Shown here: piece after piece, positions 19,664 through 50,589 of the stretch
Position numbering within the stretch: position 1 is the first letter of the stretch
Layout: every line of letters starts with the position of its first letter
NCBI GenBank assembly: GCA_026110335.1
Contig: GCA_026110335.1_3055.1
Source of the DNA: a phage
Length of the DNA: 64,000 nt
Reading direction: 5' to 3' (one strand)
Notes under the pieces: generated by a model
Told to the model about the DNA's origin: nothing
The model's input: only the letters and a program-made list of their open reading frames with translations
Databases searched by the model: none
Program-made: the position numbers and the translations under genes

Positions 19664-20299
19664 TCACAGTTCAGATGCTACAGTGATTACAGCTTCAATG
19701 TTTTCTGCCGAGCGTTTAATGTCAAGATACACATTACCGTTTTTAGCGATTTTACATGACATTCCGATATCAGTAAATTTCTGAATATGATGTTCCATCA
19801 TTTTGTATCCAAAAATTCGCATATTTCCATTGTTGTTAATTTCAAAATTACGAATTCCGTGAGTGCGTTTTTCTAAAATAGCAAGATAGTTACTACGATA
19901 AGTTTCAACTTTTTTAAGAACAAATCCATTTTCATCCAAAAGTTTTAACATGAAGTCTTTATCTTCTTCCATATCAGAAGTAATCTCACGAGCTTTACGA
20001 GTTGCTCGTTTTTTCAGCAGTTCCGGAGCGTTTTCCTGTGCGTATAAAGTTGCTGCATTTGAAATAATATCCTGAGCTTCACCAGTAATGATTAATCCAT
20101 CACCAGATTTCTCCACCAGGCCTTTTTTAATCAATACCCCAATATTACTATTAACTACTGCATTACCTAAATCTGGATGCACCTCACGAACTTCTGCAGC
20201 TGTAATGAAATCTTTCTTAGCAATAGTAATTAAAATCGCAGCAGTTTTTTCATTCAGAACATCGTTAGAAGCTTTGATGATGTAAGTTACTTTAGACAT
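19664..20299 (-). CDS. motA: middle-promoter transcription activator MotA
   Basis: 211 aa; early promoter and terminator hairpin upstream; length and sequence match T4 MotA as recalled. Confidence 0.85.
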   Translation of the reverse strand: MSKVTYIIKASNDVLNEKTAAILITIAKKDFITAAEVREVHPDLGNAVVNSNIGVLIKKGLVEKSGDGLIITGEAQDIISNAATLYAQENAPELLKKRATRKAREITSDMEEDKDFMLKLLDENGFVLKKVETYRSNYLAILEKRTHGIRNFEINNNGNMRIFGYKMMEHHIQKFTDIGMSCKIAKNGNVYLDIKRSAENIEAVITVASEL

Positions 20300-20577: not shown

Positions 20578-21902
20578 TTGATTTCCTCTAAATCTTTGGT
20601 GTATTCGGTAACTACATCAGTAGTTTTCCAATATTCGTTTTCTTCTTTTTTAGCTTTAGCTTCTTCAGCAAGTTTCTTTGCTTCATCAGAAGTCATATGA
20701 AAAATATTCATTCCAACTAGTTTATCAACATAAGAAGAATACATGTCGATTTTCGAAAGTTCTTCGGTCAGTTCTTTACGAGTTTTACCCTGTACAACAA
20801 TTTCACCTGAAATTACTTTCTTAATGAAATGTGCCTTGGCAAAGGCTAAACGAAATGCTGATTCAGTTTCTTTGATTTTGTTATCAATTCGTTTTTGGAC
20901 ATAAGTTTTACGAACTTCAACAAAGTCTTTAATTAAATCAACTACGTTATCGTAAACTTGCAGCTTTCCTTTCTCATTAATGACTGTAATATTTTGGGAA
21001 CGACGCTCAATCAACCCGAAGTCTTTCATGATTTTTGCATGGCGTTCTTCTTCGTTATCACTCAAAGAATATTCTTTACGGAATTTAACTTTAAAGCCAA
21101 AGCCATGTTCACCACAAGCATCATCCCATGTAATGAAGCCTTTATCTTCAAGCGGGTCTAAGATTTTACTCACATAAGTTTCACGATCATACTTATACGG
21201 AATCTCAGTGATATTCATTTGAGTTCGTGAAGTAAACTTGTACGTTCCACGAATTTCATATTGACCGTCAATTTCAACGACTTCACCACGAAATTCTGGG
21301 AATTCTACTTTCGGTTTAGTTACTTTCTTTCCTTGAAGAGCTTGTAATACAGCTTTCTTAACAGAAGAAACACTATGAGGAAGAATGTAAGTTGCATAAC
21401 CAGTTGCAATACCGGAAACGCCATTAAGAAGAACAGTAGGAATAACAGGCAAATAGAAAGCAGGCGGAATGTGTTCTTTATCTTGATGTACCGGAGCATA
21501 TTCAGTATCTTTATATACGTTATAGAAATTTTTACTTACACGAGCAAAAATATAACGACTTGCTGCTGCCTTTTGGACAGTACGAGAACCAAAGTTTCCT
21601 TGACCATCTAACAAAGGAAAGTTATTATTCCAAGTATTAGCCATCAAAGCACCTGCGTCTTGCGCAGAGTTTTCACCATGATGATATCCAAGGTCCGCTA
21701 CACCGCCTGCGATAGAAGCGAGTTTGTGAAACTTATCTTTATTTCCTCGTGCCAAATCAAGAGCTCGAGCAATAACAAATCGTTGAACTGGCTTAAATCC
21801 GTCAATCATATTTGGAATGGCACGATTTTCAACCGTGTACATAGCATAAGCCAATGCTTCATTATCAATGATACTTTTTAAATCGCGATTATTCAGTTGC
21901 AT
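20574..21902 (-). CDS. 52: DNA topoisomerase II medium subunit gp52
   Basis: 442 aa; GyrA-like N-terminal domain; matches T4 gp52 as recalled. Confidence 0.9.
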   Translation of the reverse strand: MQLNNRDLKSIIDNEALAYAMYTVENRAIPNMIDGFKPVQRFVIARALDLARGNKDKFHKLASIAGGVADLGYHHGENSAQDAGALMANTWNNNFPLLDGQGNFGSRTVQKAAASRYIFARVSKNFYNVYKDTEYAPVHQDKEHIPPAFYLPVIPTVLLNGVSGIATGYATYILPHSVSSVKKAVLQALQGKKVTKPKVEFPEFRGEVVEIDGQYEIRGTYKFTSRTQMNITEIPYKYDRETYVSKILDPLEDKGFITWDDACGEHGFGFKVKFRKEYSLSDNEEERHAKIMKDFGLIERRSQNITVINEKGKLQVYDNVVDLIKDFVEVRKTYVQKRIDNKIKETESAFRLAFAKAHFIKKVISGEIVVQGKTRKELTEELSKIDMYSSYVDKLVGMNIFHMTSDEAKKLAEEAKAKKEENEYWKTTDVVTEYTKDLEEIK

Positions 21903-28486: not shown

Positions 28487-28513
28487 ATACCACATCCTTG
28501 TGGTAAAGTAAAC
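28487..28513 (-). promoter_or_regulatory. early promoter for rIIA.1/rIIA
   Basis: GTTTAC (overlaps gene 39 stop), spacer TACCACA-n4-TGTGGTA, TGGTATAAT -10. Confidence 0.5.
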
Positions 28514-30330
28514 TACTGGCTCATCCATTCTTTACGAAGGTCAGCGTTATCTCCCATGAGCATTTCAAAAAGCTCTTTCCAATTCTCAGGAAGTTTAACA
28601 ACATCATATACTGGATTTTGAATCATCTCACGATATTCAGATTTTTCCAAAGAGCCAAGTCCCTTAATATAACGGATGCTATGTTTAGGTAGAGCATCTT
28701 TGGCACTCTCATATTCAGCGACTGTATAAAACCATTCTTGTTTTTTACCGACCTGAGCGATGATTACAGGAGTTTTGACAAAGCGAATTCGTCCTTGCTC
28801 AAACAATTCTGGCCAATTACTAAAAAATCCGAGCAGAGAAGGATAAATGCTTCCTAGACCATCGTGGTCAGCATCAGTCATAATAGCGATATTATGATAA
28901 TTCAAGTTTTCAGCTTTTTCACCAAGAACTAATCCAGTGATTGCGCAAATATCAAATAGTTCTTTGTTTTTAAGCATATCTGCATAAGACATACCCCAGC
29001 TGTTGAGAACTTTACCACGCAATGGATAACCACCGTGAAGTTCTTTATCACGAACATCAATAAGATAGCCGATAGCAGAATCACCCTCAGTCAAGAAAAG
29101 AGTAGTATCAGCATCTTTACCACAAAGATTCGCTTTAATATGTTTATGAACCTTAGCTTTAGAAGCCTTTTTAGCTGCTTTAGTTTCTGCTGCTTTTTCT
29201 GCCGCCAATTTACGAGCTAGTGCAGCTTCAATAATCGGCATCAAAATCGCTTCATTATTTAGAATAGCGCGTGAAATCTTTTTAGCATCAAGTTGAATAT
29301 GACTACGGATTTCACCAAATGGAGAAGTCAAACGCTCTTTAGTTTGAGAATCAAATCGCATGTTTTTCATATCACGAACAAACATAACGATAGTCAAACA
29401 TTCTTTAACACGCGCTTTAGTTACATCAATTTTGAACTTGCGTTTGATTTGTGGAATAAGGTCTTCACAAATATCATCCATAACACAGTCAATGTGATGG
29501 CCACCATTCTTAGTGTGAATGTTATTGACGTACGTCAACTGACGAAAACCATCCGGTGAACGACCAACCGCAATAGAACAATTTTCTTGTTCTTGAACGA
29601 TAGCATGTTCATCATACTGTCGTGCATATTTCTTAAAATTGCCCTGAACCTTTTTACCATTAAAGGTAAATTGAATATCAGGATAAACAACAGCAAGTGT
29701 CTGGAGACGATCTAGTGTAATGTCAAGATAAACTTGGGACAGCTCATTAGTTTCAAATGACATAAAATCAGGAATGAAAGTAACACGAGTTCCTTTCCAT
29801 TTTCCAGGAATATCTTCCCATGATTTATTTTCCATGCCATTTGAACAACGAACTACAATATTATTTTGACCATCACCAGTTTCACCAACAAACATCACAG
29901 AAAAAATGTTTGTCAAACTAGAACCAACACCATTCATACCGCCAGTGACGCGCTCTTTATCATCACCGAAGTTACCACCTGCTTTTGGAATAGTCCATGC
30001 AGCAACAGGGCCAGGAATTTCTTCACCAGTAGGTGTTTTAACCATCGCTTGTGGAATACCACGACCGTTATCTTCAACTGTTACTTGATTGTTTTTAATA
30101 GTAACATTAATTTTATTTGCGAATTTAAACTTAGTACGAATACCTTCATCTACTGAGTTATCGATAATTTCATCAATAAGCTTAACAAGACCAGGTACAT
30201 ACTGAACACTTTCCCATTTACCAAACAGAAAGCGCTCATGCATTTCATTAGCAGAAGAGCCAATATACATGCCGCTACGCTTTTTGATATGTTCAATATC
30301 GCTCAGAATTTTAATTTCATTCTTAATCAT
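28513..30330 (-). CDS. 39: DNA topoisomerase II large subunit gp39, fused 39+60 form
   Basis: 605 aa from ATG at 30330 (GAGGA SD); GyrB-like ATPase motifs 'EIIDNSVDE', 'DNGRGIP'; single uninterrupted ORF. Confidence 0.9.
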   Translation of the reverse strand: MIKNEIKILSDIEHIKKRSGMYIGSSANEMHERFLFGKWESVQYVPGLVKLIDEIIDNSVDEGIRTKFKFANKINVTIKNNQVTVEDNGRGIPQAMVKTPTGEEIPGPVAAWTIPKAGGNFGDDKERVTGGMNGVGSSLTNIFSVMFVGETGDGQNNIVVRCSNGMENKSWEDIPGKWKGTRVTFIPDFMSFETNELSQVYLDITLDRLQTLAVVYPDIQFTFNGKKVQGNFKKYARQYDEHAIVQEQENCSIAVGRSPDGFRQLTYVNNIHTKNGGHHIDCVMDDICEDLIPQIKRKFKIDVTKARVKECLTIVMFVRDMKNMRFDSQTKERLTSPFGEIRSHIQLDAKKISRAILNNEAILMPIIEAALARKLAAEKAAETKAAKKASKAKVHKHIKANLCGKDADTTLFLTEGDSAIGYLIDVRDKELHGGYPLRGKVLNSWGMSYADMLKNKELFDICAITGLVLGEKAENLNYHNIAIMTDADHDGLGSIYPSLLGFFSNWPELFEQGRIRFVKTPVIIAQVGKKQEWFYTVAEYESAKDALPKHSIRYIKGLGSLEKSEYREMIQNPVYDVVKLPENWKELFEMLMGDNADLRKEWMSQ

Positions 30331-30355
30331 CACTTATCCTCGTTTGGTTTCGGGA

Positions 30356-40736: not shown

Positions 40737-41255
40737 TCAATAACCTCGGTCTTGACGAGCGAAGTTTTCAGCATTTTTCAGATAATAAAGTTTAAAGATT
40801 TCTTCAGCTGACATTCCAAGAGCAATGAATTTATTCATGAAAAAGTGAAATTGGTCAATTAGTTCAAATTTAATTTCAAGCTGATCTTCAGGAGATAAAT
40901 CTTGAATTTTCTTGGATTGCATTTCAGAATAACGTTTCTTCCAAGGTTTCCATACAGCAGAAGCTTCTTTTTCGCCATTACTCATACCGCCAAGAGAAGT
41001 ATATAACTCGCGAGTTTCGTCTGCGATATAATCGTCTTGGTTTCGCAACCAAGCAAGAACTTCTCCTGCAGTTTCAAGTGAATCGGGATGACGATTTGTT
41101 TCTGGTTTATCATTAGCCAAACGAATCTGTAAATGCCGCTGCATATCAAGCATAACCTGCAGTGGGTCAATATTGTGCATAATATTCTCAGCATATGCAC
41201 GATTTGCTTTATCAACACCTTCGATCAAATGAGCACATTCATTAAAGTGAGCCAT
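40737..41255 (-). CDS. 56: dCTPase/dUTPase gp56
   Basis: 172 aa from 'MAHFNECAHL' (AAGGA SD; track start is TTG); MazG-like fold expected. Confidence 0.8.
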   Translation of the reverse strand: MAHFNECAHLIEGVDKANRAYAENIMHNIDPLQVMLDMQRHLQIRLANDKPETNRHPDSLETAGEVLAWLRNQDDYIADETRELYTSLGGMSNGEKEASAVWKPWKKRYSEMQSKKIQDLSPEDQLEIKFELIDQFHFFMNKFIALGMSAEEIFKLYYLKNAENFARQDRGY

Positions 41256-41315
41256 TATTTTTCCTTTCAATTCATCAATAAGTTAAATAATTATATCATT
41301 TGAATATGTAAGCAA

Positions 41316-42104
<789 letters not shown>

Positions 42105-45381: not shown

Positions 45382-46809
45382 CTAAAATTTTAATTCATTC
45401 GCCAAAGCATCTAACTGAGCTCGAGTGGATTCATTTCTTTGATAGCGATTCTGTTCAGCCTGAATCTGCTGTGAACCTGCTACTTCACTCACTCCAGTTG
45501 GAGTAGAATCTTGTTCAATTTCTACCCATTTCTGATTTCCTTTTTGAACACCCATCAAAAACTTATTCCATTTGTTCTTATCACCATATCGTGATTTGAT
45601 TTGCTTAATGAGCTGTTGTTCAGCCGCTGCTAACTCTTCAGTTTCAATGACCGCAAGCATAAAATCAGCTGTTGCTGGAAGACCAGCGGATTCTGCAATA
45701 TCGCTCATGTTAACATCGGAAGAGTCCCAAGCTTGTTTACCAACCTGTGCTGCAGTCCAAAGAACAGTTTCGGTTTCAACAGCCAGAGCACGCAACTCCT
45801 CTGCAATAGCTTTAACAGTTGTGTAACTATTTTCTGAATAAACTCTAATGCGGCAAGATTTACAAATACCTAGATAGTCGACAATAATGATTGTTGGAAC
45901 AAAATTCTTCTTGAGCTTCAATTCGTTTAAAAGAGATCGAAATGTATTAGCATCTGCTCCACCAGTGGGATATTGCTTAACGATTAAACGACCGAGAGTA
46001 GATTTCTCACGCCATTTTTCCATTTTTCCTTTATACTCAGCGTAAGAAATATGTCCATCATCAATGTCATCAAGAGAAACATCAAGCATATTAGCGTCAA
46101 TACGCTTAGCACAGACTTCTTCTGCCATTTCCATGGAGATATAAAGAACGTTATGACCAAGCTGCAAATAATCTGCTGCTAATGAACACAATCCTAATGA
46201 CTTACCAACGTTAACACCAGCCATTAAAACGTTCAGTGTTCCAGTCTCAGCTCCGCCTTTAGTAATTTTGTTTAGAATTCTGAGTTTAAATGGAACCTTA
46301 CGAGCTTTATTCATATAAGATAGCCAACGTGCTTCGTAGTCATCCATCCAATCATGACCAACGTAGCTATCAAATGAAATTGATAATGCTTGACGCATAA
46401 TGTCAGGAATAGCACCAACATCCGGCATTTTCTTATTTCGTTTTTCCGGAGGAAGCTCAGCATTAGTTTGAATTTCGATTATTTTAGACGTAGCATTAAA
46501 CATCGCCCTTTGCTGAACATATTTTTCTGTTTCTTTTACTAACCAGCTGTGGTCTTCCGGAGAATCAGCTAGTTTTGAAATAAGTGTTTTTACACCAGAA
46601 TATTCTGTTTCAGTAAATGAACTATTTTCTAATGCAACATTTAACGCATTAATAGATGGAACGCTATGATACTCATTGACATGAGATTTAATTAATTTGA
46701 ATGTATTTTTAGCTGGACCACTTTCAAAATATTCTGAATCCATATATGGCCAAACTTTTGAAAAATAAGCTTGATCAAATATGAGATGAGAAAGAATAAT
46801 TTCTACCAC
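45382..46809 (-). CDS. 41: replicative DNA helicase gp41
   Basis: 475 aa; GTG start with AAGGAG SD; Walker A 'GVNVGKS'. Confidence 0.9.
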   Translation of the reverse strand: MVEIILSHLIFDQAYFSKVWPYMDSEYFESGPAKNTFKLIKSHVNEYHSVPSINALNVALENSSFTETEYSGVKTLISKLADSPEDHSWLVKETEKYVQQRAMFNATSKIIEIQTNAELPPEKRNKKMPDVGAIPDIMRQALSISFDSYVGHDWMDDYEARWLSYMNKARKVPFKLRILNKITKGGAETGTLNVLMAGVNVGKSLGLCSLAADYLQLGHNVLYISMEMAEEVCAKRIDANMLDVSLDDIDDGHISYAEYKGKMEKWREKSTLGRLIVKQYPTGGADANTFRSLLNELKLKKNFVPTIIIVDYLGICKSCRIRVYSENSYTTVKAIAEELRALAVETETVLWTAAQVGKQAWDSSDVNMSDIAESAGLPATADFMLAVIETEELAAAEQQLIKQIKSRYGDKNKWNKFLMGVQKGNQKWVEIEQDSTPTGVSEVAGSQQIQAEQNRYQRNESTRAQLDALANELKF

Positions 46810-46818
46810 ACTTACTCC

Positions 46819-47163
46819 TTAAAAGAATTTAAATTTTTTCTTTGACCTTTTATTAAATGCATCTTGCAGTTGCATTGTAATACATTTTTCTACATGAGGA
46901 GCTAACTCAGCTTTTCTTTCTTGGTCAAGAACAGCAAAGTCCATTACGACTTTTCCATCAACCCAATCTAATTTTGTCACATACACAATGTGTGTAGAAC
47001 CATCTTCTAGTTTAATGACAATCTCCTGGATAACATTTTCCATGGCAGATTTAATTATCTTAAGAGACTCATTAAAAAGACGTTCTTTTCTTTCTTCTTC
47101 CCCCTCCGAAGAGGGGGATTCATCGATAATTTCTAGATCTAAGTCTAAATCATCTTTATTCAT
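46819..47163 (-). CDS. 40: gp40 head assembly protein (candidate)
   Basis: 114 aa from ATG at 47163 (GGAAG SD); position between 41 and uvsX. Confidence 0.6.
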   Translation of the reverse strand: MNKDDLDLDLEIIDESPSSEGEEERKERLFNESLKIIKSAMENVIQEIVIKLEDGSTHIVYVTKLDWVDGKVVMDFAVLDQERKAELAPHVEKCITMQLQDAFNKRSKKKFKFF

Positions 47164-48331
47164 TAAATTCTTCCATATCACTTAACTGCTCGAGGTCAGT
47201 TTCTAAATCAGCTGCTGATTTACTTTTACTTTCTGGAGATTTAAATTTTTCAACCTTTGAGTTAATCAATTCATCAACTTCAGCTTCAACAATTTCATTA
47301 CTATCAATAGCACCTAACTGATAAGCACGTTTAATAGCATCTCGGAATGGCTGATGTTTAAATAAAGGACCCCAGAATGTAGTGCAGTTGGTATCTTTTG
47401 CACGCCAAGATTTTTCTTCGCGAATCATCTCGCCGGTTTCTTCGTCAAGAAATTCACGAGCATACCAACCATTTTTAGGTTTTACCACAAATCCTAATTC
47501 TAGAGCCATATCTAACAACCCAGAATAAGGATCGATACCACCGTCAAATTTAACATCAATAAAGAATTTACTTTTTTCTTTAACGGTACGAGATTTTTCT
47601 ACATTTAGAACAAATTGATACCCCTGAAGATCAGAACCATCTTTAATCTGACGTTTACCGATAATGAATACGGTATCAGCAGAATACATCGGTCCAGTAC
47701 CACCTCCCATAACTGTTTTACTAAACATTTCTTGTGTTTCGTATGTATGGTTAATAGCAATACATGGAATATTTTTAGTACTAAAATAGGGAGTTACGAT
47801 ACGAAATAAGCTTTTCATTGTTTTAGCTCTAGTCATATCACTAACAACTTTTTCATTTAAAGCATCTTCAGTTTCTTTCTTAGAAGCTAAGTTACCAAGT
47901 GAATCGATAAAAACGACTACCTTTTCGCCGCGTTCAATTGCATCCAATTGATTAACCATGTCAATACGTAATTGCTCAAGTGATTGAACCGGAGTATGAA
48001 TTACTCGTTCTGGATCGACTCCCATAGACCGCAAATAAGCAGGAGTAATACCAAATTCACTATCATAAAACAAGCATACTGCATCAGGATATTGACGCAT
48101 GTAAGATGACACCATTGTTAATCCAAAGTTTGATTTAAATGATTTTGATGGACCTGCCAAAATTAACAGACCAGATTGCATACCACCAGTAATTTCACCA
48201 GAAAGTGCAATATTCATCATAGGAATTTTTGTTCGAACTACATCTTTTTCATTAAAGAATTTAGATGCTGTTAATTCTGCTGTCAATTTAGAAGTAGAAG
48301 CTTTAATCAAACGAGATTTTAAATCAGACAT
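47156..48331 (-). CDS. uvsX: UvsX recombinase (RecA/Rad51 family)
   Basis: 391 aa; Walker A 'GPSKSFKS'; matches T4 UvsX as recalled. Confidence 0.95.
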   Translation of the reverse strand: MSDLKSRLIKASTSKLTAELTASKFFNEKDVVRTKIPMMNIALSGEITGGMQSGLLILAGPSKSFKSNFGLTMVSSYMRQYPDAVCLFYDSEFGITPAYLRSMGVDPERVIHTPVQSLEQLRIDMVNQLDAIERGEKVVVFIDSLGNLASKKETEDALNEKVVSDMTRAKTMKSLFRIVTPYFSTKNIPCIAINHTYETQEMFSKTVMGGGTGPMYSADTVFIIGKRQIKDGSDLQGYQFVLNVEKSRTVKEKSKFFIDVKFDGGIDPYSGLLDMALELGFVVKPKNGWYAREFLDEETGEMIREEKSWRAKDTNCTTFWGPLFKHQPFRDAIKRAYQLGAIDSNEIVEAEVDELINSKVEKFKSPESKSKSAADLETDLEQLSDMEEFNE

Positions 48332-48339
48332 ATAATACC

Positions 48340-49005
48340 TTATAGTAGTGTTCTTGTTCCACGAAATACTTCGAGCATTCTTGCATAAGATTTATTTGGA
48401 AATCCAGCTTCAATTGCTAATTTTTTAAGCTTAATAGCACCGGGTTTTCCAGAGTTTTCCCATATTTCTTTAATCTTTTCAATGTTATCCCACATTATTG
48501 GGTCACGTTTATGTGATGGTTTATTTCTATTATAACCATATGGATTATTAAGCAAAGCTTCTTTTCGTTTTGCTTTAGTTTCTTCTGACTGCTTTTTGCC
48601 TAGCTGGGCTTTCCGGCAAACATCACTAAATCCAAGATGTTTTGGTTTTCCTTTTTGGGCTTTTGAAATTTTTTCTTTGGTTTCTGATGAAACTCTATAA
48701 CCAATTCTTCTACCACCCTCTCCACCAATTTTTAAATTATAAGTCATAGGATCATTTACCACATCTATTGTTACTAATTCTCTTTCAGCATCACGGGCTG
48801 ATTTAAAATCTTTATAAAACCCAAGAATGCTTAAATTAAAATTTTTCTTACCATACTTTTTCTTGGCTTGTGCTAATAAAGTTCCTGATCCCATATAACC
48901 ATCATTTAAATCATCGGTTGAATGAGTTCCATAGTAAATTTTATTATTAACTAAATTAGTTATAACATAAGTATAATTATATTTCTTTTCTTTATGTCTT
49001 TTCAT
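48340..49005 (-). CDS. segA: GIY-YIG homing endonuclease, SegA-like
   Basis: 221 aa from ATG at 49005; 'YNYTYVITNLVNNKIYYGTHS' GIY-YIG motif; position beside uvsX as recalled for T4 segA. Confidence 0.7.
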   Translation of the reverse strand: MKRHKEKKYNYTYVITNLVNNKIYYGTHSTDDLNDGYMGSGTLLAQAKKKYGKKNFNLSILGFYKDFKSARDAERELVTIDVVNDPMTYNLKIGGEGGRRIGYRVSSETKEKISKAQKGKPKHLGFSDVCRKAQLGKKQSEETKAKRKEALLNNPYGYNRNKPSHKRDPIMWDNIEKIKEIWENSGKPGAIKLKKLAIEAGFPNKSYARMLEVFRGTRTLL

Positions 49006-49009
49006 GTCA

Positions 49010-49852
49010 TTAATCAACTGCTATTGGATGAATAGCATTAAACTTATGAAATGCTTCTGATTTTTCTTTACGCGAAACACACATGCGAAGAACCTTTAGT
49101 GGTTCATCTTCTTCACCCAACGATTTTCGTTTTTCAATATTTGAAGTTTTCCAACGAGCTTGCTCTGGAAACTCTCTATTGATTTGCTCAAGCGCTCTAT
49201 TATGTTTAGAATTACTACGAATTGAACTACACCCACCGGGAGCGTGTGATTTTCCAGATACAACTAGATATTTGAACAAGGCCAAATGCGGATAACCTTG
49301 ATTAATTAAATTGAGAAATGCATACATATCTTCGCATAAATCAATTTTTCCATACCCAATTTGTTCTGTCGTAAGTTTTCCGAGGTCATACCATGTATTC
49401 GTGAATCCATATGAGTTTTCACGATAATTACCCCAAGATGAAGTAATTTTAAAAATTGGTAGACGAGCATGACCGTGATAATACCCGCAATCCATGGCAT
49501 CTTCAACGTATTGAATTAATTCATAGAACTGTTCACGAGTTAATTGATTAATTTTATCTACGCGCCGTTTATCGTCTCTCTTTCGTATTGAACTCATACG
49601 AATAGTAGTATCATCATCGATCATCCAAATTCGTTGACCTGCATACATATCAGTAATTGCTTTACGAGTACCGGCAATTCCATTAACATCATCAGGAATA
49701 GTTACAATTTTAGCTCTAGACCCATAAGCATCATAATAAGCTTTTTCTTCGTGTTCACGCACTACAATATGGGGTTCATAATCAGTCGGAAACATATTAA
49801 GGGCAGAAACTGCCCCTACACGCTGATAACTTGGAATTACGAATTGAATCAT
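49010..49852 (-). CDS. putative GT-A-type glycosyltransferase at the beta-gt locus
   Basis: 280 aa from ATG at 49852; 'FVIPSYQR' start and 'WMIDDDTT' DXD-like motif; no resemblance to T4 beta-gt as recalled. Confidence 0.6.
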   Translation of the reverse strand: MIQFVIPSYQRVGAVSALNMFPTDYEPHIVVREHEEKAYYDAYGSRAKIVTIPDDVNGIAGTRKAITDMYAGQRIWMIDDDTTIRMSSIRKRDDKRRVDKINQLTREQFYELIQYVEDAMDCGYYHGHARLPIFKITSSWGNYRENSYGFTNTWYDLGKLTTEQIGYGKIDLCEDMYAFLNLINQGYPHLALFKYLVVSGKSHAPGGCSSIRSNSKHNRALEQINREFPEQARWKTSNIEKRKSLGEEDEPLKVLRMCVSRKEKSEAFHKFNAIHPIAVD

Positions 49853-50589
49853 TTCCACTCACCGTTATAATCTTTTTTCACAATATGAGTTTCGCCAGTA
49901 TTCCACCAATGATCAACCAAGTAAAAATGACGAGAATATACATGAAGACTTCCAACATTCCATATAATAGAACCTGCTTTATACTGACGAGTTGAATCGC
50001 CTGCATTCAAATCAGATACTAATTTATCTAATACGTATTTTTGCCATGCATAATCATTACGGAATCCGAAGACCACGTCATTTGAGCGCATGCTTACTAC
50101 TGCATTGACTTTCTTATCACGAATCAGGTACTGTACTGTATTAGTACACATGAAATCTGACATGCCATCTTTATTATAGTCAAATTGCATGGATGGACGA
50201 GTATAAATCATGATACCACGTCGAGAATCAGGATTTTGACCAAGTTCAGCTAAACACATATCATACTGGGCATAGTTATCTTCTGACCAAATAGCCCAGC
50301 CATAATTCGAGTTAATTTCGCCTTTAGAAGATGCTACCTGCTGCCAAATCTTTGGTGTTTCACCTGGAATATCTTTAACAAACAGACTTTGAGACTTGTA
50401 CCATTCAAGTTCACGCTGAATGTATTCATCATTAAGAGCGCCAAAAATAAACGGTTCATCTGCTACAAATGATGCGCCAATAATTTCAATAGTTTTAACA
50501 CCGGTTTTATCAACCACGAAATCTTTTTCTTTTAATGCAAGCCCCAAACGAAGACGGATTTCTTCAACTGTCATAGAGTCACTAATCAT
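49849..50589 (-). CDS. 42: dCMP hydroxymethylase gp42
   Basis: 246 aa; TS-like fold; matches T4 gp42 as recalled. Confidence 0.9.
   Translation of the reverse strand: MISDSMTVEEIRLRLGLALKEKDFVVDKTGVKTIEIIGASFVADEPFIFGALNDEYIQRELEWYKSQSLFVKDIPGETPKIWQQVASSKGEINSNYGWAIWSEDNYAQYDMCLAELGQNPDSRRGIMIYTRPSMQFDYNKDGMSDFMCTNTVQYLIRDKKVNAVVSMRSNDVVFGFRNDYAWQKYVLDKLVSDLNAGDSTRQYKAGSIIWNVGSLHVYSRHFYLVDHWWNTGETHIVKKDYNGEWK

Follow-up and report, generated by a model that had tools for sequence, protein, structure and literature searches.

Which host defences see T-even phage DNA is decided by the pattern of sugars on its hmC, the defences being McrBC, GmrSD/BrxU, Brig1 and the Brig3-BapA glycosylases. 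Gentiobiosyl-hmC amounts to ~72% in T6 and to ~5% in T2, a difference known since the 1960s. The second glucosyltransferase of these phages, beta-glucosyl-HMC-alpha-glucosyltransferase (ba-gt, also called ggt or TAGT), we take to be EC 2.4.1.28, glucosyl-DNA beta-glucosyltransferase. The product of the T2 and T6 TAGT is 5-gentiobiosyl-methylcytosine (PMC13216743). In T6 without ba-gt, gentiobiosyl-hmC was abolished and only alpha-glucosyl-hmC was found; the deletion raised the sensitivity of the phage to the Brig1 glycosylase and turned its DNA into a substrate of Brig1 in vitro (PMC11078745). The BapA glucosyl hydrolase was inactive on T6 DNA and active on the DNA of T6 lacking g-gt (bioRxiv 10.64898/2026.02.25.707755).

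Ten natural Tequatrovirus isolates with alpha-GT and TAGT and without beta-GT contained hmdC, alpha-glucosyl-mdC and alpha-gentiobiosyl-mdC by HPLC/MS, and the beta-glucosyl form was absent (PMC13390438). The gentiobiosyl form made up roughly two-thirds of the modified cytidines in seven of the ten natural Tequatrovirus phages measured, and Durham Tequatrovirus phages carrying a Dam-like gene showed an intermediate ratio of hmC, alpha-glucosyl and gentiobiosyl forms of ~1:2:2 (PMC13390438). TAGT is located where T4 has beta-GT; alpha-GT together with TAGT is the usual arrangement, and the T4-style pair of alpha and beta enzymes is rare, being found in 6 of 753 genomes (PMC13216743 among the papers cited for both points).

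An intact ba-gt gene between gene 42 and uvsX

The DNA analysed here (the window) is a stretch of 64,000 nucleotides from a T-even phage (Tequatrovirus). Downstream of gene 42 it carries an ORF of 280 codons plus a TAA stop, and its product is very probably the Tequatrovirus ortholog of the T2/T6 ba-gt (Table 1). The protein starts with MIQFVIPSYQRVGA and also holds WMIDDDTTIR. It aligned without gaps to T2 ggt (MH751506), with 270 of 280 residues identical (96.4%; 10 substitutions), and to T6 ggt (MH550421), with 268 of 280 identical (95.7%; 11 substitutions plus the amber codon of that T6 record). A protein of phage JEP6 was 100% identical. With 40 bits, the match to PF20691 (TET-associated glycosyltransferase, TAGT) exceeded the gathering score of that family, 27.5, and covered profile positions 2-205 of 205; PHROG 842, 'beta-glucosyl-HMC-alpha-glucosyltransferase', was matched at E 5.9e-88, and NCBIfam had no model for the protein. 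The ORF did not arise by chance, since 689 phage records matched it in tblastn, 685 with a coverage of at least 80%. In ~475 Tequatrovirus-type records the homolog was at least 90% identical, and ~200 T4-like phages of Klebsiella, Enterobacter and Citrobacter had a homolog at ~64% identity.

Table 1. Positions of the ba-gt gene, its motifs and the associated genes in the window
Feature	Position	Strand	Evidence
ba-gt / ggt / TAGT ORF, 280 aa	49010..49852	minus	ORF call, homology
N-terminal FVIPSYQR, residues 4-11	49820..49843	minus	alignment and model strand
DDD, residues 79-81, DXD-type motif	49610..49618	minus	GATGATGAT in sequence, alignment
E174-D175 'ED' pair, candidate catalytic base	49328..49333	minus	conservation, GT2 analogy
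segA, GIY-YIG homing endonuclease	48340..49005	minus	220/221 identical to T4 SegA; PF01541, NUMOD3
uvsX recombinase, T4-like allele, downstream landmark	47156..48331	minus	PF21134, PF00154
gene 42, dCMP hydroxymethylase	49849..50589	minus	PF00303 E 1.3e-15; 99.2% identical to T2 gp42
a-gt, DNA alpha-glucosyltransferase, 400 aa	60993..62195	minus	PF11440 E 1.5e-257; 91.5% identical to T2
gene 56, dCTPase/dUTPase	40737..41255	minus	171/172 identical to T2 gp56 (99.4%)
dam, N6-adenine (GATC) DNA methyltransferase	41316..42095	minus	PF02086 E 6.5e-51; 100% identical to T2 Dam

The gene order in the window is 43 - imm.1 - imm - 42 - ba-gt - (segA) - uvsX. T2 and T6 likewise place ggt directly after gene 42 and ahead of uvsX; the T4-type segA that lies 3' of ba-gt in the window is absent from both. 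The window gene thus resembles those of T2 and T6 in its length of 280 aa, its slot between gene 42 and uvsX, its partners alpha-gt, 42 and 56, and its conserved motifs. The analysis establishes what the gene is, its synteny, its family and its fold class, and shows that its reading frame is intact and has the consensus residues. The gene, its product, fold class and phenotype are already published and the arrangement is the commonest in the genus, and the identification, which aids phage annotation and the choice of phages for therapy, holds nothing new for biology.

In T4, b-gt (351 aa) fills this slot, with gene 42 on one side and segA/uvsX on the other. We rejected a divergent beta-gt as an explanation for the window ORF, since BLASTP found no similarity between the window protein and T4 b-gt (best E 4.1, over 35 residues); PF09198, the T4 beta-gt family, gave no match in the window protein either. 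The two enzymes are alike in their slot downstream of gene 42, in the UDP-glucose donor and in the beta linkage made onto phage DNA. They differ in fold, GT-B (PF09198) for T4 b-gt and GT-A for ba-gt, and in acceptor, which is free hmC for the former and alpha-glucosyl-hmC for the latter. An earlier note, made from the sequence without database searches, had described a 280-aa protein at the beta-gt locus of T4, unrelated to T4 beta-gt and with the motifs FVIPSYQR and IDDDTT, as possibly the second glucosyltransferase of T2/T6, and had proposed a comparison with those enzymes. The ORF, its locus and its distinctness from b-gt were as described, the second motif lies at residues 78-83, and the comparison bore out the suggested identity by a full-length, gap-free match within a glycosyltransferase family.

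The ATG of ba-gt at 49850-49852 shares the sequence ATGA with the TGA stop of gene 42 upstream, and a Shine-Dalgarno-like GGTGAG stands just 5' of it. Both features are the usual compact, translationally coupled layout of T4-type phages. A GTG start at 49858, placed two codons upstream by the ORF finder, was dropped because the ATG at 49852 agrees with the T2 annotation and gives the ATGA overlap. Promoter-like sites were not in excess between 48200 and 51000 (16, compared to 13.3 ± 3.5 in shuffled sequences). Within ba-gt codons 12-18, just past the overlap with gene 42, the minus strand can form a GC-rich hairpin with a 9-bp stem (TAGGGGCAG TTT CTGCCCTTA; window 49798-49818), which is terminator-like but poor in its T-tail. 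Among related records, that of Yersinia phage fPS-2 has its ba-gt match annotated with a 'terminator' feature.

Fold class and conserved residues

The alignment, which also served as the AlphaFold2 input, was shallow, with 10 sequences, the window protein and nine homologs (from a large protein database, 11 clusters). Residues I6, P7, S8, Y9, R11, D79, D80, D81 and D175 were invariant across the aligned homologs, down to 31% identity, and E174 was nearly invariant. The window allele agrees with the consensus at all 41 invariant columns. The model was of medium confidence (pTM 0.70, mean pLDDT 68.7): the first 80 residues had pLDDT above 80, with strand E3-7 within FVIPSYQR, and the loops 125-151 and 194-210 fell below 50. 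GT-A fold matches were obtained for the model, and the protein has the acidic DXD-type motif, the combination that the earlier note had expected; the fold call leans mainly on the N-terminal half of the model built from these 10 sequences.

Judging from the model, the nucleotide-binding, Rossmann-like half probably begins with FVIPSYQR as its first beta-strand and loop. By analogy with GT-A enzymes, the invariant DDD is the predicted metal/UDP-sugar site, and E174-D175 is a candidate counterpart of the 'ED' catalytic base of GT2 enzymes. A beta linkage formed from UDP-alpha-glucose implies inversion, in agreement with a GT-A enzyme of the inverting, GT2-like kind. The cellular inverting GT-A enzymes of GT2 that we compared (BcsA catalytic domain, TarP/TarS, AvpGT) were 6-17% identical to ba-gt over the aligned residues, and Pfam GT2 gave no match in the ba-gt protein. 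Their acceptors are polysaccharides or lipids, in contrast to the DNA-borne glucose used by ba-gt. A PDB sequence search with ba-gt returned chance-level matches only (E 1.6-2, to PNPOx-like proteins); since all of these had E > 1, it appears that the TAGT family has no member of solved structure.

Predicted cytosine modification and its extent

The genes 42, 56 and dam and a 400-aa alpha-gt, which had been named in the earlier note, were all identified in the window by Pfam matches and/or by 91.5-100% identity to T2, and all four are intact. For gene 56, the ORF finder reported a TTG start at 41270, which precedes the T2-type ATG by 5 codons. The producers of the ba-gt acceptor, gp42 and alpha-gt, are thus encoded in the window as well, alpha-gt being the one that makes alpha-glucosyl-hmC.

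The activity of ba-gt and its phenotype, taken over from the literature on the T6 gene and natural relatives, suggest the following pathway. gp56 would remove dCTP from the pool, and gp42 would make hm-dCMP, which would then be incorporated as 5-hmC. After replication, alpha-gt would glucosylate part of the hmC in alpha linkage, and the GT-A-fold ba-gt would use UDP-glucose to add a second glucose, beta-1,6 onto the alpha-glucose, yielding gentiobiosyl-hmC. Beta-glucosyl-hmC would not be made, because ba-gt fills the T4 beta-gt slot in this 64-kb part of the genome. As the phage combines alpha-gt with ba-gt and lacks beta-gt at the T4 locus, its DNA is predicted to contain hmC, alpha-glucosyl-hmC and gentiobiosyl-hmC side by side. 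Gentiobiosylated sites are predicted to resist Brig1 and BapA in vitro, and sensitivity to GmrSD-type enzymes is predicted to continue.

How much gentiobiosyl-hmC would be made is a separate matter. The T2 gene is 96% identical to the window gene, yet T2 has only ~5% gentiobiosyl-hmC (PMC11078745), which indicates that presence of the gene does not set the extent of modification. The same enzyme might therefore act in the window phage at a T2-like low level, leaving mostly alpha-glucosyl-hmC and a few percent of gentiobiosyl-hmC, so that the phage would meet defences much as a mono-glucosylated phage does. This would be a variant of the T2/T6 second glucosyltransferase reading and not a denial of it. 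Besides T2, the Durham phages favour it, as their Dam-like gene has its counterpart in the window and their modification is intermediate (PMC13390438). The window allele, however, has R11 and P251, the consensus residues, at the two conserved positions where the T2 protein (MH751506) departs from it: T2 has His11 (20031-20033) against Arg in all other aligned homologs, and Ser251 (20751-20753) in place of a nearly invariant Pro. The high gentiobiosyl content of seven of the ten natural phages also argues against a low level, and on balance we consider a low level unlikely. R11H and P251S are candidate causes of the low gentiobiosylation of T2, as far as sequence comparison can suggest. With the window allele at the consensus and free of both changes, we lean towards substantial gentiobiosylation in the window phage.

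The T6 records bear on whether the window gene might be a non-functional or decaying copy, as lesion-like variants do occur in deposited laboratory stocks. In T6 MH550421 (3028-3030), ggt codon 10 is TAG and the annotated CDS begins at a Met further downstream; this amber codon was unique to that record among 473 matching records, and reflects either a mutation of the stock or a sequencing error. In T6 NC_054907/AP018814 (~1450-1455), a 3-nt in-frame deletion turns GATGATGAT into GATGAT and DDD into DD, giving a protein of 279 aa. This DD variant (YP_010067197.1) is the T6 TAGT reference in PMC13216743. The window gene, in contrast, is full length, retains all invariant residues, is coupled to gene 42 through ATGA and encodes a protein 100% identical to that of another isolate; decay is hence very improbable. 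We give just as little credence to a TAGT-family enzyme with another donor sugar or acceptor, acting for instance directly on hmC or with a sugar other than glucose. The family is indeed broad: 288 of 753 phage genomes have homologs, of substrates not known, either together with beta-GT or alone, with neither alpha- nor beta-GT (PMC13216743). A change of specificity is nonetheless very unlikely given the 96% identity to the genetically characterised T6/T2 enzymes, the same synteny and the intact alpha-gt.

The mosaic junction at segA

The segA gene, a neighbour of ba-gt that is outside the modification pathway, appears as a 225-codon ORF; its true ATG, at 49005, follows the ba-gt stop by 4 nt. 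Among 510 related phage records, segA and ba-gt occur together in only 9. Over 46770-49032, which includes uvsX and segA, the window matches T4 at 98.8% identity; from 49008 onward, in ba-gt, gene 42, imm and gene 43, it resembles T2/T6 instead, at 95-96%. This change from a T4-like to a T2/T6-like block places a mosaic junction at the 3' end of ba-gt, in its last codons, as could result from SegA-associated homing or co-conversion.

T4 itself (NC_000866, 2237-2263, aligned to window 49006-49032) has kept the last ~27 nt of ba-gt with one mismatch. This remnant holds the codons for H-P-I-A-V-D-stop and lies immediately upstream of the segA ATG. It suggests either that an ancestral ba-gt was displaced by beta-gt or that a flank moved together with segA. 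We tentatively entertain, as a possibility of rather low probability, a picture in which the window carries a 'clean' consensus allele and the laboratory records lesion-like ones, R11H and/or P251S limit gentiobiosylation in T2, and, separately, beta-gt displaced ba-gt. If so, R11H/P251S would be a simple molecular explanation of the difference in gentiobiosyl content between T2 and T6, and the modification level of any Tequatrovirus would be predictable from its sequence, with the window phage predicted to be T6-like.

Elsewhere in the window, a 606-aa ORF (28513-30333, minus strand) is found where T2 has its unsplit gene for the topoisomerase II large subunit, as judged from size and map position. 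This gene is split into 39 and 60 in T4.
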